Origin: Delftia acidovorans NBRC 14950 | Lineage (GTDB): Bacteria; Pseudomonadota; Gammaproteobacteria; Burkholderiales; Burkholderiaceae_C | Length of the DNA stretch: 32,000 nucleotides | NCBI RefSeq assembly: GCF_001598795.1 | Contig: NZ_BCZP01000027.1 | Coordinates: 40,313-72,312 of the forward strand | Direction of reading: 5' to 3' | Shown here: positions 14,138 through 32,000 of the stretch, piece by piece | Position numbering within the stretch: the first letter of the stretch is position 1 | Layout: the number at the start of each line of letters is the position of its first letter | The notes under the pieces: generated by a model | The model's input: only the letters and a program-made list of their open reading frames with translations | What the model was told of the DNA's origin: nothing | Database searches by the model: none | Made by a program: the position numbers and the translations under genes

Positions 14138-15034
14138 ATGGTGCGTACATTGCAGGATCAATGCGTGGCTGCAGGTCTGCTGTCCCTGCAGGAATCGGGT
14201 AGGGCCAGGCCGCTGCGGGTCTGGAGCGCCCGCCAGAAAGAGAACGTCTGCGACGCCGTGCAGGCCGTGCTGCTCCAGTGGCATGCCGACTGGAGCGTGC
14301 ATGGCGATGCCCCGGGGGCGCCTGCGGCATTGCGCGTGCAGGACCCCGGGGCCAATGATGGCGAAGGCGTGGACATGCTGGACGAACAGGCCGCGCTGCG
14401 CGCTCTGCACGCGCTTCTGTTCGGCCAGCCTGCGGCCGATCCCGACCGGCGCGGTCCGGCAGCACCTGCCCTGGACATGGCTGCAGGGCTGTGCGCACAG
14501 GCCTGGCAGTCCTTGACTGGCGGGCTGCGCCAGCTGGCGGGTGCCAGCCTGGGGGAACATCAGGGCTGTGCCCCCGGACCCTGGTCCGGTGCCGTTGTCC
14601 TGGCGCTGGACTGGGGCGGGGTGCGCTGGGTGCTACACCTGAACGCATCTGCCGTGGAGCAAGTCCTCGCCTCGTGCGGTGAGCTGGGTACCGGCTCGCG
14701 GGATCAGGACGACGGCGCCGTACGCAAACCCCTGGTGCCGCTGGTGCCGCTGGTGCCGCTGGTGCCGCTGGTGCCGCTGGCAAGTGCGCTGCACAGCCAG
14801 ACGGTGACGGTCCGCCTCGAGCTCAACCCCATATCACTGAGCCTGGGACAGCTGCAATCGCTGGCGCCGGGCGATGTCATCACCTTGACGCACGCGCTGG
14901 AGCAGCCTGCCCTGCTGCGACTGCAATCCCGGCAGGGCATGGATGCCGGTGAGCTCCTGTGCACCGGCTGGCTGGGGCAGTCGCAAGGCCGCCTGGGCGT
15001 CGAGCTTCAACCCCTTTCCAACACATCTTCCTGA
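14138..15034 (+). CDS. FliM/SctQ-like C-ring protein (N-terminal region of unclear affinity plus C-terminal SpoA domain)
   Basis: 298-aa ORF starting 4 nt after the flgE stop and located upstream of fliN. The C-terminus VTVRLELNPISLSLGQLQSLAPGDVITLTHALEQPALLRLQ...GELLCTGWLGQSQGRLGVEL is a SpoA/FliN-type domain. No LSQxEIDxLL-like N-terminal peptide is visible. Confidence 0.5.
   Translation: MVRTLQDQCVAAGLLSLQESGRARPLRVWSARQKENVCDAVQAVLLQWHADWSVHGDAPGAPAALRVQDPGANDGEGVDMLDEQAALRALHALLFGQPAADPDRRGPAAPALDMAAGLCAQAWQSLTGGLRQLAGASLGEHQGCAPGPWSGAVVLALDWGGVRWVLHLNASAVEQVLASCGELGTGSRDQDDGAVRKPLVPLVPLVPLVPLVPLASALHSQTVTVRLELNPISLSLGQLQSLAPGDVITLTHALEQPALLRLQSRQGMDAGELLCTGWLGQSQGRLGVELQPLSNTSS
14732..14780 (+). 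repeat. Perfect in-frame 9-bp tandem repeat (ctggtgccg x5.4) encoding (LVP)n linker
   Basis: Read directly: ctggtgccg occurs at 14732, 14741, 14750, 14759 and 14768, followed by a partial ctgg. It lies inside the FliM/SctQ-like gene, just upstream of its SpoA domain. Confidence 0.95.
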
Positions 15035-17560: not shown

Positions 17561-18733
17561 ATGAGCGCACAAACTCCCCAGACTGACGAAGGCTCCACGG
17601 CCAGGCTGGAACGCCTGGAAGCCTATCTGCGTGAAGACCCGTCCAACCCCGGCCTGCTGACCGAGGCCTTTGGGGCGGCGCTGCAGTGTGCCCAATGGGA
17701 GCGTGCCGCCTTTCACCTGCGGCACGCCCAGGCGCTGCAGCCCGGCAACCTGGCCTGGTCGCTGCGCGAAGGCGACCTGCTGCTGGCCCAGGGCCAGTAC
17801 CAGCTCGCCGCCGAACTGCTGGATGCCCTGCTGTCGCTGGACGGCGCACCCCGAGAATTCACCGATGCCGTGCTGCACAACTTGGCCTGGATCGCCTTCC
17901 AGGATGGCCGCTACCAGGATTGCGCAGACAGGTTGACTTCCAGGCTGCAGGATCTGGACCACCCTGCGTCGGCCGCATTGGCCCGCCTGTGGCTGCGTGC
18001 ATTGCACCATGCAGGCCAGGTCGATCAGGCCGTGGCCTGGGCTGGCGCTGCGGATGCAAGGCAACAACTGCCCGCCGCCGCCGCGGGCGTGGCCAGCCTC
18101 GCAGCCCTGGATGCGGATCAGTTGGAGCGTGCAGGCCAATGGGCCGCCCGTGCGCTGGAGCAGGCCACGCCTGACGACCGCCCCATCGAGGCCTTGGTCA
18201 CCCAGTCCTCGCTGGCGCTGGCCCGCCAGGATGCGGCACAGGCCCGCACGCAGGCCCGCGCCGCCCTGCAGATCAGCCCGCGCGATGGCCGTGCCTGGTC
18301 CGCCCATGCCATGGCCGACCTGCTGGCTGGCGACCTGCCCACGGCCCTGGCCCACTTCGACAACGCCCTAGCCACCATGCCCGGCCATATCGGCACCTGG
18401 CACGGCAAGGCCTGGGCGCAGCTGCTGTCTTCCGACCTGCAGGGAGCGCAGCGTAGCTTCACCAGCGCGCTGGACCTGGACCGCAACTTCGCCGAAAGCC
18501 ATGGCGGCCTGGCCGTGGCCCTGGCCCTGCAGGGCCGCACGGACGAGGCCCAGCAACACATTGAGCGCGCCCTGCGCCTGGACGCCTTCAACCTCTCCGG
18601 ACGCTACGCGCAGGCCATCGTGGGTGGAGAGATCCGGGATCTGGAGTCCTTCCAGGCGCTGGCCAAGCGGCTGTTGCGGGGGCAGGATGGGTTGCTCAAG
18701 GCAGTGCTGGGCGCCTCAAAGGCTGGGCGCTGA
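17561..18733 (+). CDS. TPR-repeat protein
   Basis: GAGGGA precedes the ATG at 17561. The 390-aa protein has repeated about 34-aa Ala/Leu/Trp-rich units (e.g. AWSAHAMADLLAGDLPTALAHFDNALATMPGHIGTWHGKAWAQLLSSDLQGAQRSFTSALDLDRNFAESHGGLAVALALQGRTDEAQQHIERALRLD). Confidence 0.7.
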   Translation: MSAQTPQTDEGSTARLERLEAYLREDPSNPGLLTEAFGAALQCAQWERAAFHLRHAQALQPGNLAWSLREGDLLLAQGQYQLAAELLDALLSLDGAPREFTDAVLHNLAWIAFQDGRYQDCADRLTSRLQDLDHPASAALARLWLRALHHAGQVDQAVAWAGAADARQQLPAAAAGVASLAALDADQLERAGQWAARALEQATPDDRPIEALVTQSSLALARQDAAQARTQARAALQISPRDGRAWSAHAMADLLAGDLPTALAHFDNALATMPGHIGTWHGKAWAQLLSSDLQGAQRSFTSALDLDRNFAESHGGLAVALALQGRTDEAQQHIERALRLDAFNLSGRYAQAIVGGEIRDLESFQALAKRLLRGQDGLLKAVLGASKAGR

Positions 18734-20705
18734 GGACTGCCAGAACTGGCGCCGGCAGCACCGAATCCAGGCTGCCCGTGACCCGGCTCGGGTCATAGGG
18801 CTGGAAGGTGTCTGCGTTGTTGGCGTTCAGGGCCAGCTTGGGGATGCTCAGGGTCTGGCCGGCCGTGAGCTCGCCGTCGCCTGAGACAGCCAGGCCGTTG
18901 GCTTCCGCGATGCGCCACCACAGGCTGCTGTCGCCCAGCACGTTGCGGGCAATGGTCTTGAGGGTTTCGCCACCGACCACGGTGTAGCTCATGGCGCTGA
19001 AGCTGGTGTCGCGCAGCTTCAGGGCAGGGGCGTTGAGGTTGAATTCGGCGGTGTTGACGTATTTGGGGACATCTCCAGCCTTGGGCGGGTTCTCGGAGTC
19101 AGGGGCGTCGCCGTAGCGGGCCAGGACTTCGCCGTTGGCCACCAGTTGCCGTTGCACGTGGCCGGGGTTGATGGCGTCGCCGATGAAGCCGCCGATGTAG
19201 CCACCGGGCTCGTTCTGGATGCGGCCGCCCTTGTCGGCCGTGGTGCCGGCGCTCTGGTTGACGTAGAGCGCATTGCCCTGGGCATCATTGACGAAGGCCC
19301 GGTTGTAGCGGGTGTCGTAGACCTCCCCTTTCTGCTCGATGTTGCTGATGAAGCCGTTGGCGTCGCGCCACGTGTTGGTGGTGGCCGTGCGGCCGCCCTG
19401 GGTGGTGGTGGACTCGGTCTGCTGGTAGCCGCCATTGAACTGGTGCTGGTAGGTGGTGCGCACGGCGTCATTGGTGCGGCCATCGGTGGTCTGCAGGTTT
19501 CCGCGCAGGTTGCCTGCGGCGTCATAGCCCAGAGAGGTGTCGCCGGCAGCGCCGTGGTAGGCGATGTCGATGTGCTGGGTCTTTTGCTGGTTGTCGGTGC
19601 GGCGCATGACCACGCGGGTGTCCTGCAGACGGCCCAGGTTGTCGTACTGGTTGTAGCGGTGTTCGTCGTTCCAGAGATTGTTGCTGCGGGCCAGCGACAT
19701 CGCATAAACCTGGCGGCCGGCACCATCGTAGCGGATGGTGTCGGTGCGCTCGGCAATGCCGTAGCCCGAGTAGCTTTCGATCCGGTTCAGGTCGTCGTAG
19801 ATGTATTGGTAGGTGCCCCGCGTGTCGGCGACACCGGCCGTGGTGCTTTTCTCGAAGACGGTGTCCTGGATGCGGTTGCCAGCCTGGTCGTAGAGGTAGT
19901 CATGCGACTTGAGCAGGGTGCCGTTGGGGGTGGCACCCTGGTATTCGCGGCTGGCGAGCTGCCGGTTCATGGCGTCGTAGCCGTAGGTCGTCACGCTTTC
20001 GTTGACGAACTGCTGGTACTGGCCCGGGGACTGGTAGGTCTTGCCTTCGTTCTTGATGGTGTAGAGGTTGTTGATGACGCTGGTCTTGACCTGGCTGCGA
20101 TTGCCGGCCAGGTCGTAGCTGATGCGCACGTCGGTGCGGCCATCGAAGCTGGCGCGCAGGCGGTTCTGGGCATCGTAGAACAGGTGGTTGTCCTGGTAGA
20201 CCACGTTTTCGATGAGGCCGGAGGACAGCTTGGTCTTCTGGGTGAGCTTTTCGGTGAGTCGGTTGCCGGCCAGGTCATAGGTGTAGCTGCTGAGCTGGCC
20301 CAGGTAGTTGTCCTTGATTTCGATGAGCTGGCCGGCGCCATCGTAGCGGTAGTCCAGGCTCTTGCCCTTGGTGTTGCCCTCATGGGTGAGCTGGCCGGCC
20401 TTGTTGTAGTCGTACTGGTAGTAGACGCGTGCGCCGTTACCCAGCTGCGAGTCGCTGCGGGCTGTCAGGCGGCCGAAGATGTCGTAGCTCCAGTCCTGGC
20501 TCATGAGGTTGGGGTCGGTGAAGCCGATCTTGCGGCCCAGGGCATCGTAGCGGTAGTAGCTGACGTTGCTCATTTCGCCCAGTTTCATGGTGGGGTCGGG
20601 TAGGGCCAGCGATGCGGTGACCTTGACCTGCTCCTGGCCCAACTTGGCCTTCATCATGCCGCTCGTTCTGTTGCCGAACGGTGCGGAAACCTGGGACAGG
20701 GTCAA
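18696..20705 (-). CDS. Truncated YD-repeat/LysM protein: internal-fragment paralogue of the large toxin gene (probable relic/pseudogene)
   Basis: The 669-aa ORF has a TTG start. Residues from GQEQVKVTAS to ...GSLDSVLPAP align with aa about 1081-1718 of the large ORF, covering the YD repeats and the LysM domain YTVVGGETLKTIARNVLGDSSLWWRIAEANGLAVSGDGELTAGQTLSIPK at 18837-18986. It lacks the N-terminal half, TM segment, junction motif and toxin tip. Its last 38 nt overlap the TPR gene's 3' end. Confidence 0.65.
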   Translation of the reverse strand: MTLSQVSAPFGNRTSGMMKAKLGQEQVKVTASLALPDPTMKLGEMSNVSYYRYDALGRKIGFTDPNLMSQDWSYDIFGRLTARSDSQLGNGARVYYQYDYNKAGQLTHEGNTKGKSLDYRYDGAGQLIEIKDNYLGQLSSYTYDLAGNRLTEKLTQKTKLSSGLIENVVYQDNHLFYDAQNRLRASFDGRTDVRISYDLAGNRSQVKTSVINNLYTIKNEGKTYQSPGQYQQFVNESVTTYGYDAMNRQLASREYQGATPNGTLLKSHDYLYDQAGNRIQDTVFEKSTTAGVADTRGTYQYIYDDLNRIESYSGYGIAERTDTIRYDGAGRQVYAMSLARSNNLWNDEHRYNQYDNLGRLQDTRVVMRRTDNQQKTQHIDIAYHGAAGDTSLGYDAAGNLRGNLQTTDGRTNDAVRTTYQHQFNGGYQQTESTTTQGGRTATTNTWRDANGFISNIEQKGEVYDTRYNRAFVNDAQGNALYVNQSAGTTADKGGRIQNEPGGYIGGFIGDAINPGHVQRQLVANGEVLARYGDAPDSENPPKAGDVPKYVNTAEFNLNAPALKLRDTSFSAMSYTVVGGETLKTIARNVLGDSSLWWRIAEANGLAVSGDGELTAGQTLSIPKLALNANNADTFQPYDPSRVTGSLDSVLPAPVLAVLSAQPLRRPALP
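18754..20638. repeat. 1.9-kb dispersed duplicate (copy 1) of the YD-LysM coding segment
   Basis: By-eye alignment with 26838-28745. Blocks about 18754-19430 and about 20058-20425 are nearly identical. The centre (about 19430-20055) and the distal end (about 20425-20638) are divergent. Confidence 0.85.
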
Positions 20706-20821
20706 GCGGCGTGCTTCGGTCGCTTTCGCTTTCTATACCCCAACCTCATGGGTCCGCGTGGACGCGTACCCGGCGCTTGGACCGCTCCCGCACGAGGTCG
20801 GCCTCTGCAACGCTGCGGCAA

Positions 20822-20990
20822 CCCGCCTTGGGGCGGGCGCACCTTCGCGTCAGCACCGGCGCCTGCCGGAGCCGCCCGTTGTACTCTCGGCAGCAACTCC
20901 AACCCATCCCCCGCCCTTCCCAGGGAAGGGCGCGAGTCGCCTTCTGCCGTGTGCGATGCCAGGCCTTCAACGGCCAAGCACCGCACACGG
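20822..20990. other. Cluster of three perfect GC-rich stem-loops in a 366-bp non-coding spacer
   Basis: The three stem-loops are CCCGCC-ttgg-GGCGGG (20822-20837), CGCCCTTCC-cag-GGAAGGGCG (20912-20932), and CCGTGTGCG-N27-CGCACACGG (20946-20990). No convincing ORF is present. GC is high, unlike the flanking AT-richer cassette. Confidence 0.6.
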
Positions 20991-21071
20991 CGAGCGTCGG
21001 TCGGCACACCACCGCGTCAAGGCCAAGCCCTCACGGGCGGCCGGTGGCCAGTCTGGACCCGGTTGCCGCAG

Positions 21072-21302
21072 CTAATTTGCTTGGAACTCAGCAGGTGTCA
21101 GAACACGAACACCCGCTGCCAGCATTCGCTTGACTACCTCATCAGCATCCAAATTGTTTTCAATGAGCTTTGCCGCCTTCGCATCAGTGTTGACTATCAG
21201 ATATTCCGGCTCACTGCCAGATGCGCCAACATTCATAAGAGCCCACTGCGGCGCAGTCCCATCCCATAAGTATCCATATTGCTGCACTTGCGCTTCCATC
21301 AT
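21072..21302 (-). CDS. Small protein downstream of orphan toxin tip (putative immunity protein)
   Basis: 76-aa ORF (MMEAQVQQYGYLWDGTAPQWALMNVGASGSEPEYLIVNTDAKAAKLIENNLDADEVVKRMLAAGVRVLTPAEFQAN). GC is lower than the genome background. Its position downstream of a toxin-tip ORF is the only functional evidence. Confidence 0.4.
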   Translation of the reverse strand: MMEAQVQQYGYLWDGTAPQWALMNVGASGSEPEYLIVNTDAKAAKLIENNLDADEVVKRMLAAGVRVLTPAEFQAN

Positions 21303-21412
21303 TTGCTCCCTGTGACATCCTTGCTGAATCTAACTACATCCTTGCCTACCGGAACAATCTGAGAACTGCGTTGAGGCGAGCCGATGGCTTCAAGGAAGCG
21401 CATAACTTTCAT
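21299..21412 (-). CDS. 37-aa ORF start-stop coupled to both neighbours (separate peptide or frameshifted 5' part of the immunity gene)
   Basis: Its ATG (21412-21410) overlaps the stop of the orphan tip (ATGA), and its TGA overlaps the ATG of the 76-aa ORF (ATGA). Translation by hand: MKVMRFLEAIGSPQRSSQIVPVGKDVVRFSKDVTGSK. It is not in the supplied ORF track because it is too short. Confidence 0.25.
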   Translation of the reverse strand: MKVMRFLEAIGSPQRSSQIVPVGKDVVRFSKDVTGSK

Positions 21413-22509
21413 GTCCTGTGGACTTGTCCATGCAGTTCCACCAGGGTGCGATAAATCAACATCATGTCACTTTGCAATGGAACGTCAACGGCTCCCTTTT
21501 CGCCAGAATATAAGAAGTACTGCCCTCCACGACTGTTTTGGCCGGGGCCCAGCTTGTAGGTCACTGCAAATTCGACATCATGCTTGACCGTCAGAGCTTC
21601 CAGCTGCACTGGCGTTGGACGCCCTGGCACTGCCACTCCAGAAATACCAGGTAACCCCTCGCCAACTCTTGCACCGTACAAAAGCCTCTCGACCGCGCCG
21701 GTCTCGGCCAACGTCGCACTTCCGACATTGCCAAGACGGTAGTTTCCATACTTCGCCAACTCGGTGCTCAAACTTCGAACACCAGCGCCAAGACCCAATG
21801 CAGCCTGTCCCACATCGTTGAACAGGCTCCCCAATTCGTAGCTTCTCTGGAAGTCGTCGCTCGTGATGGACGATGCCAAACTATACCGGTTGGCGACGTC
21901 TTCGATCAAATTGGTGGCCGTCTCGACAGGACTGCCAGCCAGGTTGATGATGCCCTTGCCCAACGCGCTATTGTTCTCCCAGGAACGTTGCATCAAAGGT
22001 GTGTTGTGGAAGGCACCTCCCGTGACAACATCCAACGCCTGATTAAAGGTGTCGCTGAGCGTGCGAACAGTGCCATAGGCCATTTTCCCAAAGGACGCAC
22101 CAACGCCAGCCACAGCCCGAGCGGACGGCAGTGCGTCGCGCACGCCTGGACCGTATCCATTGCCTGCGTCACTTGCCGTGCTCTGAGGTCCACTGGCAAG
22201 CACCCAAGATTCCTCGGAAATCGGCAGCGTCCCACGCAAACCTTCTATCGAGGAGACATCAAAGTCACCCGCTGTGTCCTGGACATCGCTCGCACGCACA
22301 TTGCCGTACCTCAGCCCCTCACCACTACCAAGCCGCAGACCAGTTCCGTCATCGCCTGAACCGCCGAGGCTGTAGAGCCTGTTGTTGGCCTGGCCGTGCA
22401 GTTCAGTGCCCGTGGACGCACTGGCCACGGACCACCCCAACGCATTCCCAAACGCATCGGTCGCCACCTGCTGCATGCTGACCCGCCCAACCTGGGTGAT
22501 CAAGGCCAC
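21409..22509 (-). CDS. Orphan polymorphic-toxin C-terminal cassette (junction motif plus variable tip of unknown activity)
   Basis: Starts ...ALITQVGRVSMQQVATDAFGNALG..., the same motif that precedes the tip of the large toxin. In-frame homology extends upstream to a stop at 22543-22545 (GAGLAAGT...). There is no credible RBS and only a GTG start. It shares the loose LYSL...GLRLG..GLRYG..RA pattern with the main tip and then diverges. Confidence 0.55.
   Translation of the reverse strand: MALITQVGRVSMQQVATDAFGNALGWSVASASTGTELHGQANNRLYSLGGSGDDGTGLRLGSGEGLRYGNVRASDVQDTAGDFDVSSIEGLRGTLPISEESWVLASGPQSTASDAGNGYGPGVRDALPSARAVAGVGASFGKMAYGTVRTLSDTFNQALDVVTGGAFHNTPLMQRSWENNSALGKGIINLAGSPVETATNLIEDVANRYSLASSITSDDFQRSYELGSLFNDVGQAALGLGAGVRSLSTELAKYGNYRLGNVGSATLAETGAVERLLYGARVGEGLPGISGVAVPGRPTPVQLEALTVKHDVEFAVTYKLGPGQNSRGGQYFLYSGEKGAVDVPLQSDMMLIYRTLVELHGQVHRT
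22436..22473 (-). repeat. Junction box, orphan copy (38 nt identical to 26208-26245)
   Basis: cccaacgcattcccaaacgcatcggtcgccacctgctg was read at both sites. It encodes QQVATDAFGNALG on the - strand. Confidence 0.95.
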
Positions 22510-22586
22510 GGTGCCTGCTGCCAGGCCCGCTCCTGTACGGAATCAGAATTTTGTTTCTATAAATTATTTCGGCATAATTTCTATAT

Positions 22587-23078
22587 TTATTTAGAACTTA
22601 TTGTAAATGAATGGCCTGTGCAAATAATATTTCCATCATTAATATCTACACTGTTTAGCGTTTGAAGTATATGAATTTCTTGATTAATTTCTGTTTTTTT
22701 GTTGAAAAGATAGCCCATGAATTCTGAAGGCAATATTTTTAATAGTACTCTTGAAAGAAGTTCCGATTGATTTTTCAGCATTTTCTCAAAAGATATATAT
22801 CCAGTGTCATGTAAATATTTATAATCCCCTTCAAGCTCTTCGTAGAATCCCTCATCTTCCGATTCACGGTCGATGAAATCCTGATAATATTTCGAAAAAT
22901 GAATGATTGCATCGGAGAACTCAATTTTTAAAAAATAGAAATTAACCTCTTCTGAAGGCAAGGATTTTCCGAATGAATGGTGATCGACTGTTATTTTTGA
23001 GCAATCAATTGGGTGTTTATTTATTTCGCAGTAACGCATTAGAAAAATCCGCCGGGTGGCACTAGTGTAATTTTCCAT
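22587..23078 (-). CDS. AT-rich hypothetical protein (putative immunity/partner of the IS-disrupted orphan module)
   Basis: The ORF is open over 22587-23195. Likely starts are ATG 23078 or ATG 23039, the latter 22 nt after the upstream stop. The DNA is very AT-rich (about 27-30% GC by eye) and the protein is Lys/Glu/Phe/Ile-rich. I recognise no motif. Confidence 0.4.
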   Translation of the reverse strand: MENYTSATRRIFLMRYCEINKHPIDCSKITVDHHSFGKSLPSEEVNFYFLKIEFSDAIIHFSKYYQDFIDRESEDEGFYEELEGDYKYLHDTGYISFEKMLKNQSELLSRVLLKILPSEFMGYLFNKKTEINQEIHILQTLNSVDINDGNIICTGHSFTISSK

Positions 23079-23430
23079 CTGGATGAATGGAAATGTATCC
23101 AGACGGACCAAATGGTTGTCCGGCACGTTCTGGAGGGAAGGGACCACGAACTCCTGATCTTTGAAAAAATTCCTGTGGACTGACGATGAGTCCACTAAGA
23201 GGATTATTTCCAGAGAATATGCGTATTACTCTCTCTGATTTCAATAGGCCTCCGGCATCGAAGTTATCAAGGATGGTTTCAATTTGTTTTGTTTTCATTT
23301 TTGAATTAAAGCCAATATCTAGATCACTGTCCGGTCGGAATTGTTTCTCGCCAGCGAAGAATGATCGTATACGGCTTCCTCCCAAAACAACTTCAACAGG
23401 CTTGGGCGTGTTAAGACTGGCTAACACCAC
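23062..23430 (-). CDS. Nucleotidyltransferase-fold ORF, 5' end disrupted by IS insertion
   Basis: VEVVLGGSRIRSFFAGEKQFRPDSDLDIGF fits the minimal Pol-beta-type NTase pattern (G-S ... D-x-D). The first about 6 codons, including the GTG start, lie inside the IS terminal repeat, so the native N-terminus is missing or displaced. Confidence 0.4.
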   Translation of the reverse strand: MVLASLNTPKPVEVVLGGSRIRSFFAGEKQFRPDSDLDIGFNSKMKTKQIETILDNFDAGGLLKSERVIRIFSGNNPLSGLIVSPQEFFQRSGVRGPFPPERAGQPFGPSGYISIHPDGKLH

Positions 23431-24290
23431 CGATCCACGAAGCGCGCGCAGATGATCGCTGCCGCCAATTTCAGCAGCGCTTCGTGGATATCCAGCCGTC
23501 GTTCAAAGCGGATTCGCAGCTTGCCAAAGCCTGCAAACCAGCTGTGCGTCCTCTCCACCACCCACCGGTGTTTGCCCAGCCGCTCGCTGCTCTCAATGCC
23601 TCGTCTGGCAATCCGGCCAATGATGCCCCGCTGCCTCAGGTGGGCTCGGCATCGCTTGAAGTCGTAGCCTTTGTCGGCGTGCAGCTTTGCCTGTCGTCTA
23701 CGGGGACGTCCTGACAGGCCAGCAATCGCAGGAATCGCGTCCACGCACCTCTCGAACATCTTGGGGTCGTGCCGGTTCGCGCCGCTGACCAAGATCACCA
23801 GCGGGATGCCTCTGGCATCTACGACGATGTGCCGCTTGGGGCCCCGAGCTTGCCTCTGTCCGTGGGGTTTGGGCCCGTTTCCTGGCCCCCCGAGGGCCTG
23901 GTACCGAGGAGCCATCAATGCTGCCTCGGCTCCAATCGATTTGGTCATGTTCACGCAAGCGAGTCAGCATGGCTTGGTGCAGCTGCTCCCAGACACCAGC
24001 GGCATTCCAGTCGCGCAGACGCCGCCAGCAAGTCATGCCGCTGCCGTAGCCCAGGGATTGGGGAAGGTCTTCCCATGGAATGCCTGTTTGCAGCACGAAC
24101 AAGATGCCGTTGAGGGCAGCCTCATCGCTGACTGCGAGCTTGCGCGCGCCGCCTTTGGCAGAAGGCACGAAGGCTGGGATCAGGGGTCGTAGCTGTCGCC
24201 ACAGTTCTTTGCTTGCAGGTCGTCTTGCCATGAGGGCCGCGAACATAACTGCTCCGAGGGCGCCTCTGGGAAAGTAGTGTCAGCTACTCT
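23414..24290 (-). mobile_element. IS5-family insertion sequence (IS427-like size class)
   Basis: Imperfect terminal inverted repeats: AGACTGGCTAACACCAC (23414-23430) versus the reverse complement of 24274-24290, AGAGTAGCTGACACTAC (13/17 matches). It is flanked by TA on both sides (23412-23413 and 24291-24292). It encodes a DDE transposase in two overlapping frames. Its GC is high relative to the AT-rich target. Confidence 0.75.
23421..24246 (-). CDS. IS5-family DDE transposase, split over two overlapping frames (orfA 23698-24246, orfB 23421-23954)
   Basis: orfA reads ...ALNGILFVLQTGIPWEDLPQSLGYGSGMTCWRRLRDWNAAGVWEQL...IDGSSV. orfB reads ALGGPGNGPKPHGQRQARGPKRHIVVDARGIPLVILVSGANRHD...LHADKGYDF...IARRGIESSERLGKHRWVVERTHSWFAGFGKLRIRFERR. 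These are the typical IS5/IS427-group transposase blocks. Confidence 0.8.
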
Positions 24291-24466
24291 TATTACAGGA
24301 TTGCCATTTGCATCGAGGGTTATAAACTGACGACTTGCAAGAGACGGAGTGCCGCCGCGAACACGGAAAAATTCACCGTCGTACCCGCCATCGGTGCGAA
24401 GTTTTCTTCAATGCTAATTGAAACAGCCCACAATATGAAGGTCGTTCATCGATTCATTAGAGTAGC

Positions 24467-24865
24467 TCACATATTCCGAAGCAATCGCATCACGTCATCT
24501 TTTCTAGGACTTTGCTGAGATTCAAGATATGCATAAATCTGCATCAACCTAGGTCGTAAGTTAGGCGAGGGCTTAACTGACATATTTTCAAGCTCTGATG
24601 CCGCAATCGCGGCCACCTGCAGGTGATCCGAATTTAGAAGCTTTGTTAACAGAGTGTCGGCGAATTCGCCCCCTGTAGCACCAGCAGCTTCGGCACATCT
24701 CTCTTGCCAGTAAGCAGGCTTTGTCAAAGCCCGCTCTGTAAGCTCGTACCAATCGGACGGTGAGAAATCATGCAGCTTATCCGCAGCAAGTTGAACACTA
24801 ACTTCTTGCCACCCAGAAGCAGGTGAGCCCAGCAAAGCGTCGTACGATTCATTCATGATATTCAT
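24467..24865 (-). CDS. Putative cognate immunity protein of the EndoU-like toxin tip
   Basis: The 132-aa ORF starts 6 nt after the toxin stop. It is AT-rich like the toxin tip and helical and acidic (…DWYELTERALTKPAYWQERCAEAAG…). The assignment rests on position only. Confidence 0.5.
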   Translation of the reverse strand: MNIMNESYDALLGSPASGWQEVSVQLAADKLHDFSPSDWYELTERALTKPAYWQERCAEAAGATGGEFADTLLTKLLNSDHLQVAAIAASELENMSVKPSPNLRPRLMQIYAYLESQQSPRKDDVMRLLRNM

Positions 24866-24871
24866 TTTAGT

Positions 24872-27800
24872 TCACGGAGGCGAAATTGGCCTTCCCCCGG
24901 TAGGGAAAGAGGATGTGATTATACCGTTCTCTTTTACCACTTGCCACTGAACTCCGTTGACAACGGATGTATGCACAGTGGTTTCCACTCCATTTGTATT
25001 CCGAAGCACAAAACCCGGCTGTTTTCCAGTTATCTTGCCTGCCTCAAGAATATCTGCATTCCCCCACGTTTCGGGGGCAATCGTTTGAATATTCGGTGAT
25101 TTTGCCTTTGAAAAACCAATGCTGCCATCCTTTCGAACGATTGTGCCTTTGAAGTCCGTCACCGAAATCGTCCCATCCGGGTTAACCGTGGAGTAAGGGT
25201 TCATCTGATAATTTGGAGAGCTCAGCACGTCGGGGGAGTGGCCTCCGACGAAGTTGTTAGTCCCGGGTTTTCCAGCGCCAAATAGAATTTTAGAGTCAAG
25301 TTGTGTCAGTGGCCCGAAAAAATCGGAATCACCAGGCACCGGCACGACGGTATTGCCAAATTTAACCCCCCCAAGCTGGGCCGCTCTGCTCCCTATTATC
25401 GGTCCCGAGAATGCATTGTCGAGTGCCGCTGCTGCTATACTACCAGTTGCTCGTATTCCAGTAACCGTTCCATATATTTCAGCGCCAGCTTGCAAGCTTG
25501 CACCGAGAATGGATGTTATTCCATCACCTAGATGCTCCTCGGAAAATGCGCGAGTTGGGTTGATTATATTGCTCTGAACGTAGGCTGCCGCAGGTGCCAA
25601 TTTGCCTAAGATAGCCTCTGCACCGGGACTGTCGGGCGTATAACTGTAGTTTGTTTGAAGAATATTCTGAACACCTACCGCAGTATCTACTCCACTCAAA
25701 ATGGCGTATGGAATGGAAGCCAGTGCACTACCAATACGTACAGTTTGGTTGTAGGTTCCACCCAGCACCAATTGCGCAGTTCCTTGAATATATTCAGCCC
25801 CACTTGGTGAGGCGATAGAAATATCTGTGTTAAATGCTGGAGCATTATCTAAACTAATAGATGGTAACGCTACAGGTTTCAGAATATTATGGCTAATTAC
25901 TTCGGTTGCACGCACATCGGAATCGTAGTAATCGTATCGCAAGCCCTGCGAATTTACCCCTTGATAGATGATCTTTGGAGTGGCATACATTGATGCCAAA
26001 TACCCGTTATTCCCGAAACTGTCTAAATTCTGTGTATTAATTCCGAATGATGGTATTGCGCGTTGTTCCCCATAACTGAGGCCAGCAGCGCCACCAAGCC
26101 TCAGATTCGGCTCGCCGTTTCCAGGAAGCAACCCAAGCGAGGCTCGGTCGTCAGACGCCAAACTATAGATTGAGGGTGTGGGCTGATTGAGTGACGCAAG
26201 GCTCTCTCCCAACGCATTCCCAAACGCATCGGTCGCCACCTGCTGGATGCTGATGCGCCCACCCCGCGCCACGGCAGCAGCCGTACCTGCCGCGAACCCG
26301 CTGATCGTGCCACGCGCGATGCCTGCCGCAGTCTGGTTCCACTCGCTGAACACGGTGGAGGTCTTGAGCTGGCCGTCCACATAGCTGCCCGCGGCGCCAC
26401 CGGCCGCGCTGGCCGCCACGCTCTTCCAGTCGAATCGGTCTTGTAGCCCCGTGACCACGCCAATACCCTGGGTCATGGCATTGGCCGTAGCTGCTCGCAT
26501 AGCTGCCGATTGCCAGTCCGTTCCGCCCAGCAGTTCCGTTCCTGCAAGGCCCTTGGTGATGCCACCGCTGAGCGCAGACAGAGCCACGCTCTTCCAACTG
26601 AAGCCGTCCTGCACCCCCATCAGATTGCCAGCGACTTGGCTGGCGATGGAGCCTGCGGCCCCTCCTACTGCAGCACCCATCGCCGAGGTGGTGGCAGTGG
26701 CTCCGGCTCCGCTGATCAGCCCGGGCACCCCCATATTGGCGAGGAACTGAGGAGCATAGACGGCAACCACTACAGCCACCGCCACCATGATGATCTTGCC
26801 CAGCGCCCCGCAGCCACCTCCCTGGCCCGCAGGCGCAGGCAGCACCGAATCCAGGCTGCCCGTGACCCGGCTCGGGTCATAGGGCTGGAAGGTGTCTGCG
26901 TTGTTGGCGTTCAGGGCCAGCTTGGGAATGCTCAGGGTCTGGCCGGCCGTGAGCTCGCCGTCGCCCGAGACGGCCAGGCCGTTGGCTTCCGCTATGCGCC
27001 ACCACAGGCTGCTGTCGCCCAGCACGTTGCGGGCGATGGTCTTGAGGGTTTCGCCGCCGACCACGGTGTAGCTCATCGCGCTGAAGTTGGTGTCGCGCAG
27101 CTTCAGGGCAGGGGCGTTCAGGTGGAATTCTGCGGTGTTGACGTATTTGGGGACGTCTCCAGCCTTGGGCGGGTTCTCGGAGTCGGGGGCGTCGCCGTAG
27201 CGGGCCAGGACTTCGCCGTTGGCCACCAGTTGCCGTTGCACGTGGCCGGGGTTGATGGCGTCGCCGATGAAGCCGCCGATGTAGCCACCGGGCTCGTTCT
27301 GGATGCGACCGCCCTTGTCGGCCGTGGTGCCGGCGCTCTGGTTGACGTAGAGCGCATTGCCGCGCGCGTCGTTGACGAAGGCCCGGTTGTAGCGGGTGTC
27401 GTAGACCTCCCCTTTCTGCTCGATGTTGCTGATGAAGCCGTTGGCGTCGCGCCAGGTGTTGGTGGTGGCCGTGCGGCCCCCCTGGGTGGTGGTGGACTCG
27501 GTCTGCTGGTAGCTGCCGTTGAACTGGTACTTGTAGGTGGTGCGCGTGGCATCACCGGTGTTGCCATTCGTGGTCTGCACTTGCCCGCGCAGGTTGCCAG
27601 CGGCGTCGTAGCCCAGGCTGGGGTCGGTGGTGCCGGGGGCGCCATGGTAGGCGACGTCGGTGTGCTGGATCTTTTGCTGGTTGTCGGCGCGGCGCATGAC
27701 GACGCGGGTGTCCTGCACGCGGCCCAGGGTGTCGTACTGGTTGTAGCGGTGTTCGGCTTCGCCGGTGCTGCTCAATGTCTTGGCATAGACCTGTCGGCCG

Positions 27801-30800
27801 GCTCCGTCGTAGAGGATCTGGCCGGACTGCGTGGCCTTGCCCGACTGGCTGATGCTGAAGCTGTCCAGCCGGTGCAGGTCGTCGTAGACGTAGTGGTTGA
27901 CCGTTTCCTGGGCGGCCTTGCCAGAGGTCTGTTCACTGGCAATGTCGCTGGTGCGGTTGCCGGCCAGGTCGTAGGCGTAGTTGTGCTTGAGGGTGGTGGA
28001 GGTGATTTGCTCAAGTCCCACCTTCTGGATCTGCCATTCGAAGCTGACAGTCTGCCGGTTCATGGCGTCGTATGCATAGGTCGTCAGGCTGGCATTGTCC
28101 ACCTGGTCGTACCAGCCAGGCGATTGCCACCATTGGCCCGCGAAGTTCACCTTGTAGAGGTTGTTGATGACGCTGGTCTTGACCTGGCTGCGGTTGCCGG
28201 CCAGGTCATAGCTGATGCGCACGTCGGTGCGGCCATCGAAGCTGGCGCGCAGGCGGTTCTGGGCATCGTAGAACAGGTGGTTGTCCTGGTAGACCACGTT
28301 TTCGATGAGGCCGGAGGACAGCTTGGTCTTCTGGGTGAGCTTTTCGGTGAGTCGGTTGCCGGCCAGGTCATAGGTGTAGCTGCTGAGCTGGCCCAGGTAG
28401 TTGTCCTTGATTTCGATGAGCTGGCCCGCGCCATCGTAGCGGTAGTCCAGGCTCTTGCCCTTGGTGTTGCCCTCATGGGTGAGCTGGCCGGCCTTGTTGT
28501 AGTCGTACTGGTAGTAGACGCGTGAGGCGTTGTCCAGTTGCGAGTCGCTTCGGGCTGTCAGGCGACCGAAGATGTCGTAACTCCAGTCCTGGGTCATGGC
28601 GCTGGCGCCATCTCCGGCACCGGTAAAGCCTATCTTGCGGCCCAGCGTGTCGTAGCGGTAGTAGTTGACGTTGCTCAGCCCGCCCAGTGTCACGGTGGGG
28701 CCGGGTACGGCCGGCGATGCGGTGACCTTGACCTGCTCCTGCCCGCTCATGGTCACGTTGCCGGCCAGGTCGTAGCGGTAGCGTGTGGCTTCGTTGTTGC
28801 CGTTGATGACGCGCACCTTGCGGCCGGCCTCGTCGTACTGGATGGTTTCGAGCGTGCGCAAGGCAATGGCGTTCTGGGGATCGGCCCCCGAGACGCCGTT
28901 GGCCGCATGGACGCTACCGTTGACACCATTGGCCACCGCGCCGTTGACCGATCCCAACTCGAACCGCGAGAGGGTGGACGTCGATGCCAGTGTCGTGGAG
29001 GTCAGCCGCGATAGCTTGTCATAGCTGTAGTCGGTGACCACGGTGCGCGTGGCGGTCATGCGCTCGGCTGCACTGATCTTGTCGCCAAAGGCGTTGTAGC
29101 TGAGGTCTATGCGCCCGCCGTCGGCCTTGCGCTCCTGCACCACGTTGCCGGCCAAGTCACGGACCTGGGCGTTGATGTTGCCCTTGCCGTCACGCACGCC
29201 GACCTGGCGGCCCAGTGCGTCGTAGTAGATGCGCGTGGTGGTGTATTCGGTGGGGCCTTCGTAGCTGGCCAGCTGGGTCTGGGAGGTGAGCTGGTTGCTG
29301 GCGTTGTAGGTGAAGCTGGTCTTGAACAGGGTCTGGCCAGCCTGCACGCGCGGGTCGTCCACCCCGGTGAGGTTGCCCCAGCGGTCGTACTCGCGGTTGG
29401 TGACGGCGCGGTTGCTGAGGTTGAAGGGCGTGCCGGCCCACACGCGGGTCTGCACGGTTTCCGTGTAGGGCGGGGTGGTCTCCTGCAGGCTGATGGCGCT
29501 CGAGGAGGGGACGGTGACCTTGACGATCGATTTGGCGACATAGGCCGCGTGCTGGGCCGTGGCCGGGTATTCGATCTCGATCGTGATCCTGTACTCGGTA
29601 TTGGGCGTGAGCGCATCCAGCACGATGCCCTGCAGCGGCGCCCAGTTCGGGAAGTGGATGCGGTTGTCGCCCTGGCGCCACAGGGTGGGCGTGCCGCCCG
29701 GCAGGCTGGGGTAGGAACTGACCTTGACGCGTGCACCGACCTCCGGGGCGCTCCAGTGCAGCATGTTGTAGATCTGCCCGTCGATGGCCGCCTGGCTGGT
29801 GCCCACGCCGGCGACGTTGGCCGTGGCAATCATCTCGGCGCTGAGCACCCAGGGATTGGTGATGTCGTATTCCTGCGTGGTGGTCAGGTAGTCGCCCAGG
29901 GGCTGGTTGCCCATGGCGTTGCGGTTGTAGGCCGCATACAGCGGCACCATGTCATCGGCCGGGACCTTGGAGATGTAGCCGTCGAATTGGTAGGCGCTCT
30001 GGTACCAGGTGGTGGGCGACCACGGGTAGTTGGCGGCCGGCTTGGAGTTCAGGGTGACGAAGGAGCCGCCGTTGACATCCTGCGGATTGGCCGTGAGGCG
30101 GAAGACGGTGGAGGCGCCGTATTTGTACTGGTACAGGCGCTGGTTGGTGGCCGAGGGCGAGGTCTCCACATAGCCGACGATGCCGTCATAGATGACGGCG
30201 CCGGCAGCCTCCAGCGCCTTGAATTCGGAGAAGACCGTGGGATCGGCCGAGGTGAGGTGGTGCTGGTTGTTCTGGTAGGTGAAGAGGAAACGGTGCAGAG
30301 GCACGCGGCCGGGAGCAGGGCTGCTCCAGACATAGCCGACCACGCCCAGGTTGGTGACGTTGCGTTTTTCCAGAACCGGCGCGGGCGAGACGTTGGTCAT
30401 GGCCACGTTGCCTGGTGTTCCGACCTGGCCTGTGGCATGCACCTTCTCGCCCGTGGCGGTGTTGGTGGCGATCACCTCGTATTCGATGCTGCCCGGGCCC
30501 CAGTTGACGGCCACGCCTTGCCTGTTGATGCCCATGCCCACGGTGCGCCCGTCGCCATAGGCGAACAGGCCGTTGCCGACCGTGCGCGTGGTCACGGCAG
30601 AGCTGTTGCCCTGGGGCCAGTAGCGGAATTCCACAGTCCAGCCCGCCGCAGGCTTGGGCCACTGCAGCACGCGGTAGGGGTAGCCGTCGATGATGGCACT
30701 GCCCTGTTCCACGCCGCCGGGCAGGGGCGGCAGGTTGCCGTTGGTGCTTTCTGCACCGATGGTGAAGGTGCCCGAACCCACATCGCGCGTCATCTGCGCA

Positions 30801-32000
30801 TTGGTGTTGCGCACGCGGTATTCGTAGTTGCCGGCGGGGAACTGGCTGACGTCGAAACGGTGGGCCGAGCCGAACGAGGTCTGTATGCCCACGGGCGCGG
30901 TGGTCCAGCCGTCATTGCTGCCGTAGCGGCGGTATTCGAGCGTGGTCTTGCTGACCAGGTCCTGCGGGTAGCTGACTTCGATGCTCAGGCCCATGACCTT
31001 GGCGAACATGAGCGAGGTGTGGGAAGACCCTCCGAAGGTGGCCCTCGGCAATCCCAGCAGGGCGTTGCGGTCAGTGATGGAGGTGGTGTACAGGCCGTCG
31101 CCGCGCCCACTGGCCTTGTTGTCCAGCCTGTAGAGCTTGGTCATGCCCGGCACTTCGGTGGTTGCGCCGGGGGCCACGTAGCCCTCTATGCCCTGGTTCT
31201 GCCACGAACCGCCGGCCGATGGCGCGCCGCCATTCGTGTACAGAGAGACATCGGGGTCGCCAGCCTTTGTCCAGCGGTACAGCGGTATAAGACCGGGTTG
31301 CGGATCGCGGCTCACGTAGCCGGCCGTGCCCTCATCCAACCAGCCCTTGGACTGGTTGAGCAGGCGCTCGCGCTCGGTCAGGCTGGTGGTGAAGTAGTGG
31401 GTATCGGTGTAGCGGTTGTAGTAGCGGTAGATGGGAATGCGGCCGTCTCCGGCCTCGTTCCAGATCTGGCCGGGGCTGCTGCCCTCGGTCCAGTTGAGGG
31501 TAGAGGGCTGTGCGGGGCCGTCCACGCTGTACAGCGACTGCCATTTGCCGAAGACGTCCATCTTCTCGACCAGGACCTTCTTGATGGCGCCTATGCCTGG
31601 AGCGTCCGCACTCGCATTGGCCCATTTGAGGCTGTAGCCTTCCACGGCTTCCTCGGCAGGCACGATGACGGTCTTGGTCTGGTCGCGCAGACTGGTGACG
31701 TTATAGGTGCCGCTGTGCTGGGTGTTCAGCGTGAATGCCCGCGTGTCGTAGGTCAGCGTGATGCGCACGTCGCCGCTGCCCAGGTCTTCCAGCGAGCGCC
31801 AGACCAGGTCCACCTGGTTGTAGGGCTTGCGTTGGTACTCGACAGGCACAGTCTGGACGTCCACCTCGCTTTGCGAGATCACCCCATACAGCATGTTCTG
31901 CCGCGTGGTGATGCTCATCGGCTGCTCGGTCGCACGCTCGGGCGCCAGCGTCTGCACCAGCCGGCCCAGCGCGTCGTAGCGCATGTCCGTGCGCCGGAAC
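24872..32000 (-). CDS. Giant YD (Rhs-type)-repeat / LysM polymorphic toxin, 5' end outside window
   Basis: A single uninterrupted ORF stays open to the window edge (...FRRTDMRYDALGRLV). It has many YD repeats (YDALGR, YDLAGN, YDGAGQ, YDAAGN), lectin-like YRxYN...H(F/Y)(Y/F)T...GW..EG repeats, a LysM domain, a TM helix LGKIIMVAVAVVVAVYAPQFL, a G/A-rich region, the junction QQVATDAFGNALG, and then an AT-rich C-terminal module. Confidence 0.88.
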   Translation of the reverse strand, partial: FRRTDMRYDALGRLVQTLAPERATEQPMSITTRQNMLYGVISQSEVDVQTVPVEYQRKPYNQVDLVWRSLEDLGSGDVRITLTYDTRAFTLNTQHSGTYNVTSLRDQTKTVIVPAEEAVEGYSLKWANASADAPGIGAIKKVLVEKMDVFGKWQSLYSVDGPAQPSTLNWTEGSSPGQIWNEAGDGRIPIYRYYNRYTDTHYFTTSLTERERLLNQSKGWLDEGTAGYVSRDPQPGLIPLYRWTKAGDPDVSLYTNGGAPSAGGSWQNQGIEGYVAPGATTEVPGMTKLYRLDNKASGRGDGLYTTSITDRNALLGLPRATFGGSSHTSLMFAKVMGLSIEVSYPQDLVSKTTLEYRRYGSNDGWTTAPVGIQTSFGSAHRFDVSQFPAGNYEYRVRNTNAQMTRDVGSGTFTIGAESTNGNLPPLPGGVEQGSAIIDGYPYRVLQWPKPAAGWTVEFRYWPQGNSSAVTTRTVGNGLFAYGDGRTVGMGINRQGVAVNWGPGSIEYEVIATNTATGEKVHATGQVGTPGNVAMTNVSPAPVLEKRNVTNLGVVGYVWSSPAPGRVPLHRFLFTYQNNQHHLTSADPTVFSEFKALEAAGAVIYDGIVGYVETSPSATNQRLYQYKYGASTVFRLTANPQDVNGGSFVTLNSKPAANYPWSPTTWYQSAYQFDGYISKVPADDMVPLYAAYNRNAMGNQPLGDYLTTTQEYDITNPWVLSAEMIATANVAGVGTSQAAIDGQIYNMLHWSAPEVGARVKVSSYPSLPGGTPTLWRQGDNRIHFPNWAPLQGIVLDALTPNTEYRITIEIEYPATAQHAAYVAKSIVKVTVPSSSAISLQETTPPYTETVQTRVWAGTPFNLSNRAVTNREYDRWGNLTGVDDPRVQAGQTLFKTSFTYNASNQLTSQTQLASYEGPTEYTTTRIYYDALGRQVGVRDGKGNINAQVRDLAGNVVQERKADGGRIDLSYNAFGDKISAAERMTATRTVVTDYSYDKLSRLTSTTLASTSTLSRFELGSVNGAVANGVNGSVHAANGVSGADPQNAIALRTLETIQYDEAGRKVRVINGNNEATRYRYDLAGNVTMSGQEQVKVTASPAVPGPTVTLGGLSNVNYYRYDTLGRKIGFTGAGDGASAMTQDWSYDIFGRLTARSDSQLDNASRVYYQYDYNKAGQLTHEGNTKGKSLDYRYDGAGQLIEIKDNYLGQLSSYTYDLAGNRLTEKLTQKTKLSSGLIENVVYQDNHLFYDAQNRLRASFDGRTDVRISYDLAGNRSQVKTSVINNLYKVNFAGQWWQSPGWYDQVDNASLTTYAYDAMNRQTVSFEWQIQKVGLEQITSTTLKHNYAYDLAGNRTSDIASEQTSGKAAQETVNHYVYDDLHRLDSFSISQSGKATQSGQILYDGAGRQVYAKTLSSTGEAEHRYNQYDTLGRVQDTRVVMRRADNQQKIQHTDVAYHGAPGTTDPSLGYDAAGNLRGQVQTTNGNTGDATRTTYKYQFNGSYQQTESTTTQGGRTATTNTWRDANGFISNIEQKGEVYDTRYNRAFVNDARGNALYVNQSAGTTADKGGRIQNEPGGYIGGFIGDAINPGHVQRQLVANGEVLARYGDAPDSENPPKAGDVPKYVNTAEFHLNAPALKLRDTNFSAMSYTVVGGETLKTIARNVLGDSSLWWRIAEANGLAVSGDGELTAGQTLSIPKLALNANNADTFQPYDPSRVTGSLDSVLPAPAGQGGGCGALGKIIMVAVAVVVAVYAPQFLANMGVPGLISGAGATATTSAMGAAVGGAAGSIASQVAGNLMGVQDGFSWKSVALSALSGGITKGLAGTELLGGTDWQSAAMRAATANAMTQGIGVVTGLQDRFDWKSVAASAAGGAAGSYVDGQLKTSTVFSEWNQTAAGIARGTISGFAAGTAAAVARGGRISIQQVATDAFGNALGESLASLNQPTPSIYSLASDDRASLGLLPGNGEPNLRLGGAAGLSYGEQRAIPSFGINTQNLDSFGNNGYLASMYATPKIIYQGVNSQGLRYDYYDSDVRATEVISHNILKPVALPSISLDNAPAFNTDISIASPSGAEYIQGTAQLVLGGTYNQTVRIGSALASIPYAILSGVDTAVGVQNILQTNYSYTPDSPGAEAILGKLAPAAAYVQSNIINPTRAFSEEHLGDGITSILGASLQAGAEIYGTVTGIRATGSIAAAALDNAFSGPIIGSRAAQLGGVKFGNTVVPVPGDSDFFGPLTQLDSKILFGAGKPGTNNFVGGHSPDVLSSPNYQMNPYSTVNPDGTISVTDFKGTIVRKDGSIGFSKAKSPNIQTIAPETWGNADILEAGKITGKQPGFVLRNTNGVETTVHTSVVNGVQWQVVKENGIITSSFPTGGRPISPP
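24875..25264 (-). other. EndoU-like nuclease toxin domain (C-terminal about 130 aa of the giant ORF)
   Basis: NNFVGGHSP...KAKSPNIQTIAPETWGNADILEAGKI...VNGVQWQVVKENGIITSSFPTG matches my recollection of the bacterial EndoU toxin pattern (GGH ... FPxxW ... I-T-x-[FY]-P near the C-terminus). Confidence 0.5.
26208..26245 (-). repeat. Junction box, main-gene copy (38 nt identical to 22436-22473)
   Basis: The same 38-mer as the orphan copy. GC drops sharply immediately 3' of it in the gene (lower coordinates). Confidence 0.95.
26838..28745. repeat. 1.9-kb dispersed duplicate (copy 2, inside the intact toxin gene)
   Basis: Partner of 18754-20638. The boundaries were read from where identity starts (ggcagcaccgaatccagg) and ends (gtgaccttgacctgctcctg). 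Confidence 0.85.
26921..27070 (-). other. LysM peptidoglycan-binding domain within the giant toxin
   Basis: YTVVGGETLKTIARNVLGDSSLWWRIAEANGLAVSGDGELTAGQTLSIPK fits the LysM consensus (Y.V..GDTL..IA........ L...N.l.....l..GQ.L.IP). Confidence 0.85.
29857..31447 (-). other. Region of lectin-like repeats interleaved with beta-sandwich-like modules in the giant toxin
   Basis: Repeats include RIPIYRYYNRYTDTHYFTTSLTERERLLNQSKGWLDEGTAGYV, LIPLYRWTKAGDPDVSLYT...WQNQGIEGYV, MTKLYRLDNKASGRGDGLYTTSITDRNALL, RVPLHRFLFTYQNNQHHLTSADPTVFSEFKALEAAGAVIYDGIVGYV and MVPLYAAYNRNAMGNQPLGDYLTTTQEYD. They resemble the repeat I recall being catalogued as DUF5648. IDGxxYxxLxW modules lie between them. Confidence 0.5.

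Follow-up and report, generated by a model that had tools for sequence, protein, structure and literature searches.

Why should two toxin tips whose DNA is dissimilar be joined to what precedes them by the same 38 nucleotides (nt), and can one tip replace the other through them? The question arises in Delftia acidovorans NBRC 14950, in a stretch of 32,000 nt (contig NZ_BCZP01000027.1, positions 40,313 to 72,312) that we call the window and that is 100% identical to Delftia acidovorans CP066006.1. An earlier reading of the letters alone (the original prediction) took the shared 38-mer for a recombination handle, by which a downstream orphan tip could displace the tip of a main toxin gene. That idea stands for the gene family, and for this locus when strains are compared, but is weak as a live switch in this genome. 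Judging from sequence comparisons, we consider it likely that a giant polymorphic toxin gene of the YD-repeat/LysM type has its 3' end in the window, that displaced cassettes are arrayed behind it, and that the box formed by the 38-mer is a family-wide recombination junction for tip/immunity cassettes. The features on which this reading depends are given here, with lengths in amino acids (aa) and open reading frames abbreviated as ORFs.

24872 to 32000, minus strand: main toxin gene, 3' 7.1 kb, with DUF5648 (Pfam E=7.4e-22) and RHS/YD repeats (RHS_repeat E=5.8e-21)
26924 to 27070, minus strand: LysM domain encoded by the main gene, at aa 1639-1687 of the ORF as it stands in the window (PF01476 match scoring above the cut-off, E=5.7e-6)
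26207 to 26830, minus strand: pre-toxin domain, Gly/Ala-rich, ending in RGGRISIQQVATDAFGNALG
26208 to 26245, minus strand: junction box, main copy (38-mer), encoding QQVATDAFGNALG
24875 to 26206, minus strand: main polymorphic tip of 444 aa, made up of a linker, a middle domain and a C-terminal EndoU-like nuclease region (24899-25273; near-threshold EndoU_bacteria match)
24467 to 24865, minus strand: ORF of 132 aa, the candidate immunity gene for the main tip, which always accompanies the EndoU-like tip
22474 to 22542, minus strand: what is left of the pre-toxin domain ahead of the orphan box, namely the 23 codons that follow the TGA at 22543-22545, from an allele other than the main gene's
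22436 to 22473, minus strand: junction box, orphan copy (38-mer)
21299 to 22435, minus strand: orphan tip with a JAB-like toxin domain, pseudogenised by a 4-nt deletion and frameshift
21072 to 21302, minus strand: candidate immunity gene of the orphan tip, 76 aa, intact; in Acidovorax sp. PRC11 the ORF that follows the intact tip is 81% identical to it

An exact-match scan of the window finds the 38-mer (CCCAACGCATTCCCAAACGCATCGGTCGCCACCTGCTG, as read on the plus strand) at exactly the two predicted places, 22436-22473 and 26208-26245, with no further copy at up to three mismatches. The chance expectation is 0, and no match occurred in 100 dinucleotide-preserving shuffles. Both copies are direct repeats on the minus strand, in the same reading frame. 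On the conserved (5') side a weaker similarity continues at 79% identity over 86 nt (22436-22521 against 26208-26293), reaching some 50-70 nt past the box, and the pair of peptides originally quoted for it was correct. On the tip (3') side the DNA of the two genes diverges immediately after the 38-mer, as had been claimed, but the proteins keep a weak similarity for about 50 aa beyond the box (YSL..LRLG..GLxYG; BLASTP 43/86 identities, E=1e-14). The in-frame TGA upstream of the orphan is also present as described. With no start, a box preceded by a pre-toxin remnant, and a tip that is found intact elsewhere, the downstream element has the anatomy of an orphan tip with a short homology handle, as originally proposed.

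The 38-mer encodes the last conserved motif of the helical pre-toxin domain of a polymorphic toxin. This domain, about 207 aa long, lies between LysM and the tip and has the box at its end. It matched nothing in Pfam, NCBIfam, a PDB profile search or a permissive Pfam scan. Its AlphaFold model is all-helical (mean pLDDT, the predicted local distance difference test, 62), with nothing below E=1 in a Foldseek search of the PDB, and seven hydrophobic helices of about 20 residues each, of membrane-protein character, are predicted. A HMMER scan of 1.84 billion cluster representatives (50% identity clusters) found relatives of the pre-toxin region in 1822 clusters, 995 of them at E<=1e-10, and full-length family members measure 4000-6400 aa. 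Among the matches listed, homology ends at query residues 228-236, no more than about 10 residues past the box (residues 214-226 or so). The consensus (R/K)GG(R/K)(I/V)x(I/V)xQ(V/I)AxDAFGNALG occurs in 137 of 172 retrieved homologues; conservation is lost right after it, and the tails that follow are typically 250-550 aa long. With an invariant motif and no conservation beyond it, the box marks the boundary between a conserved delivery part and variable tips, which is where the original prediction had placed it.

Scanned at one genome per species, the family showed 354 confirmed loci, all of them Burkholderiales-type; family members come from Delftia, Acidovorax, Variovorax, Ramlibacter, Massilia, Pandoraea and other genera. 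Several loci carry two or three boxes in tandem, and all boxes within arrays are direct repeats. For many boxes the ORF in front is no longer than 235-760 codons, which identifies them as parts of orphan modules. The downstream tip fragments lack a start, and their homology to the main gene is confined to the part before the motif. Full-length homologues (P0100, P0164, P0064, P0135 and others) also share an N-terminus, MVAIVSGNSLGL...VNxxxGNLVLQ, with a weak match to DUF6531.

Evidence for exchange comes from where homology stops. Between main gene and orphan, DNA homology ends inside the box or no more than 12 nt after it in Pandoraea (L074), Acidovorax sacchari (L015) and Acidovorax sp. PRC11 (L010). 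Seven cross-genome pairs also switch identity at the box, the switch point lying inside it or up to about 27 nt after it. L028 and L029 are 100% identical over 600 nt upstream and unrelated downstream of the box; L050 and L058 are 99.2% identical upstream with nothing in common downstream, and the pairs L010/L015 and L021/L027 follow the same pattern. The converse is seen in L058/L082, L023/L027 and L015/L021, whose tips are 86-94% identical and whose pre-toxin regions are only 70-76% identical. Small downstream ORFs travel with the tips: the 132-aa ORF co-varies with the EndoU-like tip, and in both Delftia and Acidovorax sp. PRC11 the JAB-like tip is followed by the 76-aa ORF.

The same locus varies among related Delftia. 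In L088 the flagellar/TPR flank is the same (96.7% identical) and the main gene has a different tip of 452 aa. Compared with the window's main gene, about 600 nt before the box are 40-80% identical, 53 nt across the box are exact, and the sequences are unrelated afterwards. L087 and L091 have an extra core-pre-toxin-box-tip module further down the array, and L090 differs in the terminal core fragment. Together with the breakpoint pairs of the family and with D. tsuruhatensis, described below, L088 answers the strain comparison that had been suggested at the outset: tips do vary after the box.

Is the box a generic dispersed repeat, which would have undone the idea of a handle? It is not. In metagenomes the exact 38-mer was found in three contigs only, all from this Delftia locus and within the same gene family; no viral contig contained it, and 10-mers of the box cluster in boxes. 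Boxes of other Acidovorax/Paracidovorax species have 26-31 nt in common with the window box. Over 2414 pairs of boxes from different loci, the in-register exact run has a median of 11 nt and a 99th percentile of 29 nt. Runs of at least 38 nt occur in 0.6% of these pairs, and in 0.06% of pairs with comparably diverged upstream flanks. An identity of 38 nt is thus unusual even for this motif. The box peptide is itself an internal tandem, DAFG/NALG, encoded by GATGCGTTTGGC and AATGCGTTGGGG, which are identical at 9 of 12 nt (26208-26231; the tandem is present in all boxes). It resembles the YD-repeat motif YDxFGN and, from this likeness, may be a relic of a final repeat.

The codons of the box show that more than the peptide is conserved. 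We compared 70 distinct boxes with their flanks (300 codons upstream and 150 downstream). Asp is GAT in 84% of boxes (59/70), Phe is TTT in 74% (52/70), Asn is AAT in 87% (61/70) and Leu is TTG in 54%. Upstream of the box, T-ending codons make up only 27%, 18% and 29% of Asp, Phe and Asn codons, respectively (Fisher p ~1e-21), and downstream 49%, 37% and 44% (p ~1e-8 to 1e-12). The pattern persists in 53 clusters with less than 75% identity in both flanks, where AAT is used in 50/53 and the second Ala is GCG in 39 against GCC in 1. The D-x-F-G-N peptide in the YD repeats of the same genes has the opposite preference (GAC 36:11, TTC 41:6, AAC 32:15). The N, A, L and G residues of the box are free of ascertainment bias because they lie outside the pattern used for the search. 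Hitch-hiking of the box with low-G+C cassettes was ruled out, as the tips have T-ending codons at 37-49% of these three residues against 74-87% in the box. At the box, an RNAalifold consensus of 35 sequences had an energy of -0.3 kcal/mol, and none of its pairs covaried. Inspection by eye for a sigma-54 promoter or a slippery site found the GG-N10-GC spacing wrong and no canonical heptamer. The DNA of the box is constrained beyond the needs of the peptide: the codon reversal holds in independent clusters and is absent from the YD-repeat peptide, and neither RNA structure nor the G+C content of the tips accounts for it. Most simply, the 38-nt identity reflects strong nucleotide-level conservation against the genome's codon bias, through recurrent recombination or selection for identity at the junction.

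Several observations weigh against this picture. The strain-to-strain rearrangements in Delftia that can be reconstructed break in the long core repeats and not in the box. Shared tip segments often end 250-900 nt past the box, so further junctions lie inside the tips. Breakpoints at the motif could also arise if only in-frame junctions at a domain boundary survive selection. The synonymous pattern is mostly a reversal of codon preference, not total invariance, and selection on translation (slow codons at a domain boundary) could produce it. Finally, the small downstream ORFs are candidate immunity genes and the tips putative toxins, roles assigned to both from sequence.

What, then, made the box so uniform? 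We tentatively rank first that DNA-level selection or homogenisation for recombination produced the disfavoured codons. That the identity is a mere by-product of an invariant peptide and codon bias, the DNA itself having no role, looks very unlikely. DAFGNALG is indeed invariant or nearly so in the 137 homologues mentioned above, and part of the 38-mer (CAG CAG GTG GCG ACC) is in common codons. However, the box uses the disfavoured GAT, TTT, AAT and TTG where other invariant D, F, N and L residues, and the YD-repeat D-x-F-G-N, use GAC, TTC, AAC and CTG; the preference of the second Ala for GCG holds in the independent clusters; and 38 nt, set against the median run of 11 nt between boxes, exceeds what conservation of the peptide alone would give. 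The codon data have already largely refuted this account. Selection on translation is a better candidate, although still an unlikely one. Here slow codons at the end of the membrane-like pre-toxin domain would cause a pause for folding, insertion or export, and junctions would fall there only as a domain boundary. All four anomalous codons are the rarer synonyms in G+C-rich genomes, and they sit in the last predicted helix of the hydrophobic helical domain. But the Ala and Gly codons of the box are also more uniform (GCG 68-74%, GGC 68%) though not rare, a pause does not predict exact identity confined to the box in alleles whose surrounding sequence is 40-80% identical, and no conserved RNA structure was found at the box.

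Least probable of all, and ranked below the pause, is a dedicated site-specific or nuclease-driven mechanism (shufflon-like or homing-like) that targets the box in place of general homologous recombination. Such a mechanism would suit the conserved core of about 23 nt (GATGCGTTTGGCAATGCGTTGGG) and its internal 12-nt periodicity, with ATGCGTT twice, but both 7-mers occur together in just 17/70 boxes, and the idea of a binding site made of two 7-mers was dropped on that count. Boxes in arrays are all direct repeats, so no inversion system is present; the window has no recombinase gene besides the transposase of an insertion sequence (IS); and breakpoints are scattered, some within the box and others as far as about 27 nt beyond it.

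Returning to recombination as the preferred cause, a broader possibility, which we hold just as tentatively, is that the 23-38-nt box is a universal DNA adaptor across many Burkholderiales genera, whose identity would let any cassette of the pool recombine in frame onto any carrier. If so, it would be a case of second-order selection for evolvability, visible as synonymous constraint against genomic codon bias, and the box-to-box segments would be the mobile units. The codon signature bears on an old question, namely whether the junctions of polymorphic toxins are conserved as protein only or also as DNA recombination sites.

Can the switch operate in the present strain? The full-length D. tsuruhatensis protein WP_343740781.1 (P0202, 2869 aa) carries the window's orphan tip intact, behind a pre-toxin allele of the orphan type. 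In this protein and in Acidovorax sp. PRC11 the JAB-type motif H[ST]H...S..D is intact, as ...MMLIYHTHPGGT(A/P)W(A/T)SPQDM.... In the window the orphan tip is 341 aa long. A 4-nt deletion (CATA) between 21450 and 21451 has removed the first His of HTHPGG..S..D and shifted the frame, with a stop 15 codons later at 21409-21411, and the rest of the JAB-like domain is readable in another frame to 21299. The JAB assignment is based on the motif and on a weak RadC-like JAB match (E=0.079). The broken allele is also found in other strains and in metagenomes. The remnant before the orphan box is 90.6% identical to L001/L087 and carries Val where Gly is otherwise invariant (G->V). In L001 a tipX module immediately precedes the EndoU module; because this metagenome assembly may have been joined chimerically through the core repeat, we did not use it for the argument on tip switching.

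By its sequence, the orphan tip here is a pseudogene with an intact candidate immunity gene, and since the tip is dead, a present-day switch in this strain would probably not be productive. That this orphan can displace the expressed tip here, as originally predicted, is not supported. A working switch would require RecA-mediated loss of the 3772 bp between the 38-mers, exchanging the EndoU-like tip for the orphan and giving a new active toxin. The copies are direct, in frame and exact over 38 nt. That length is close to the lower limit commonly given for recombination by RecA. Comparable deletions have joined orphans to cdiA in Y. pestis Microtus (PMC3150448) and to rhs in Salmonella, where an orphan toxin was expressed through homologous recombination between main gene and orphan (Koskiniemi et al. 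2014, PMC3967940). But the Salmonella case used 522 bp of 95% identity, far above 38 nt. The orphan tip has lost its frame and its catalytic His, this frameshifted allele has become fixed in several strains and metagenomes, and the 3772-bp deletion would take out the main immunity gene too. Neither 5.8 billion protein clusters nor the metagenome scan contained a main::orphan fusion, as protein or contig, and the breakpoints between strains lie in the core repeats. We judge a working switch here to be very improbable.

A history of displacement probably lies behind the array. On this reading, incoming cassettes cross over in or just before the box, and older tips are pushed downstream as orphans with a longer or shorter part of what preceded the box. 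The orphan at 22.4 kb is probably one such displaced cassette, which kept a handle of about 100 nt and its immunity gene while its toxin decayed by frameshift. Its short handle may be the scar of the right-hand crossover in the box region, left when a newer cassette entered upstream, as the adaptor idea would also have it. Recombination itself would then maintain the sequence of the box. The intact immunity gene is a plausible reason for the persistence of the module. An orphan may thus be a dead toxin with a live immunity gene, which for the Delftia locus favours the "immunity reservoir" view.

How does this family relate to known systems? For CdiA and Rhs, both orphan tips and demarcation motifs are textbook knowledge. 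New here are the family, undescribed in the resources searched, its pre-toxin domain and its motif, the string of which led to no relevant paper in a literature search. The family follows the orphan logic of contact-dependent inhibition (CDI) and Rhs yet belongs to neither CdiA nor Rhs. As had been predicted, its demarcation motif is a different one: the PxxxxDPxGL of Rhs and the VENN of CdiA are both absent.

In CDI, orphan CdiA-CT/CdiI modules are demarcated by VENN, and recombination between conserved motif-coding sequences has been proposed, with the natural orphan-loading deletion in cdiA of Y. pestis Microtus as a documented case (Poole et al. 2011, PMC3150448). The Delftia locus shares with CdiA a giant conserved delivery protein that diverges abruptly after a short conserved peptide, and downstream arrays of tip/immunity pairs without start signals. 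In both, orphans keep variable upstream homology, at times only the motif-coding sequence, and IS elements interrupt some of them. Unlike CdiA, the Delftia toxin has no Pfam match to a TPS domain, FHA repeats or PT-VENN (PF04829), and the VENN and (Q/E)LYN motifs are absent; its carrier is a YD-repeat/LysM protein, in which the motif DAFGNALG closes a hydrophobic helical domain.

With Rhs and WapA the family shares YD/RHS repeats, a G+C-rich core and a lower-G+C tip, as well as C-terminal displacement that leaves orphans of core fragments, such as the 2-kb duplicate at 18.7-20.7 kb. Orphan rhs-CT/rhsI modules are reportedly demarcated by PxxxxDPxGL. In contrast, neither this motif nor DPxGL was found in the Delftia main protein or, in 86 homologues, between -400 and +200 aa relative to the box, and the autoproteolytic core end of Rhs is therefore absent. 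The Delftia family also differs from Rhs in its LysM and helical domain of about 200 aa between repeats and tip, and in its protein length of 4000-6400 aa. No PAAR or VgrG, nor a signal peptide, was found in the two full-length homologues scanned.

PT-HINT and PT-TG, too, are said to have been described as pre-toxin domains. The part of the text of Zhang et al. 2012 (PMC3482391) that was searched names DUF637, DUF637-N and PT-VENN, and PT-TG was not found there; the Delftia domain matches no named pre-toxin domain in Pfam. According to the same part of that source, polymorphic toxins are ordered as trafficking/repeat region, pre-toxin domain, toxin and immunity gene, LysM is an accessory adhesion domain, and Tox-JAB-2 (H[ST]H, S, D) and EndoU-type domains are among the known tips. 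The Delftia protein resembles generic polymorphic toxins in this domain order, in having LysM, and in its JAB-like and EndoU-like tips.

The full main toxin gene codes for 5974 aa in the source genome; the window holds its last 2370 codons, and the ORF runs off the window's end. Its YD/RHS repeats match PF05593 at E=5.8e-21 and TIGR01643 at E=1.8e-15. The G+C content is 45-50% in the main tip against 65% in the core, and the tip's EndoU_bacteria match (E=5.9e-5, 23.9 bits) lies just below the cut-off of 25.3. Tips are tripartite and mosaic, consisting of a linker of about 100 aa (with YSL..LRLG..GLxYG in a subset), a middle domain and a toxin domain (24875-26206 and 21409-22435 in the window; L052, L062 and L024 elsewhere). 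The middle domain is common to tips with unrelated toxin domains. This layout resembles the entry-domain-plus-toxin layout of CdiA-CT.

The array contains further remnants, two of which the original prediction had overlooked (the box-less tip fragment split by an IS and the 2-kb core duplicate).

23413 to 24292, minus strand: IS5-family insertion sequence with approximate ends and imperfect inverted repeats (DUF4096 and DDE_Tnp_1, in two frames)
23062 to 23412, minus strand: 3' part of the box-less tip remnant split by the IS (5' part about 24293-24420); the joined ORF has about 160 aa
22587 to 23195, minus strand: candidate orphan immunity gene, an ORF of 202 aa with 27-33% G+C to which a stretch of the L088 array is homologous
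18696 to 20705, minus strand: terminal duplicate of core and LysM, truncated at both 5' and 3' ends, 86-96% identical to 26832-28744

Removing the IS in silico restores the ORF of about 160 aa, which has a GS...DSDLD nucleotidyltransferase-like motif and a weak match to MdcG (E=0.11). The main tip of L088 was considered as an intact form of this remnant and ruled out, as the two have no protein similarity. The 2-kb core duplicate ends precisely behind LysM, with a 38-nt overlap into the 3' end of the convergent TPR gene. For the insertion of cassettes it might provide an anchor of homology on the right-hand side. Its internal extent varies between Delftia strains, with breakpoints near 20778, 20191/20083, 19805 and 19532. 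The contigs of L085 and L086 end at window position 18783; the duplicated core is where assemblies from short reads break or may be joined into chimeras. A spacer of about 360 nt (20706-21071), with about 73% G+C and no convincing ORF, separates the orphan immunity gene from the terminal core fragment, and one of the strain-to-strain breakpoints (20778) falls within it. Outside the array, the plus-strand ORF at 14138-15034 of the flagellar cluster contains a 9-nt tandem repeat, CCGCTGGTG, at 14729-14780, in four overlapping 25-nt copies.

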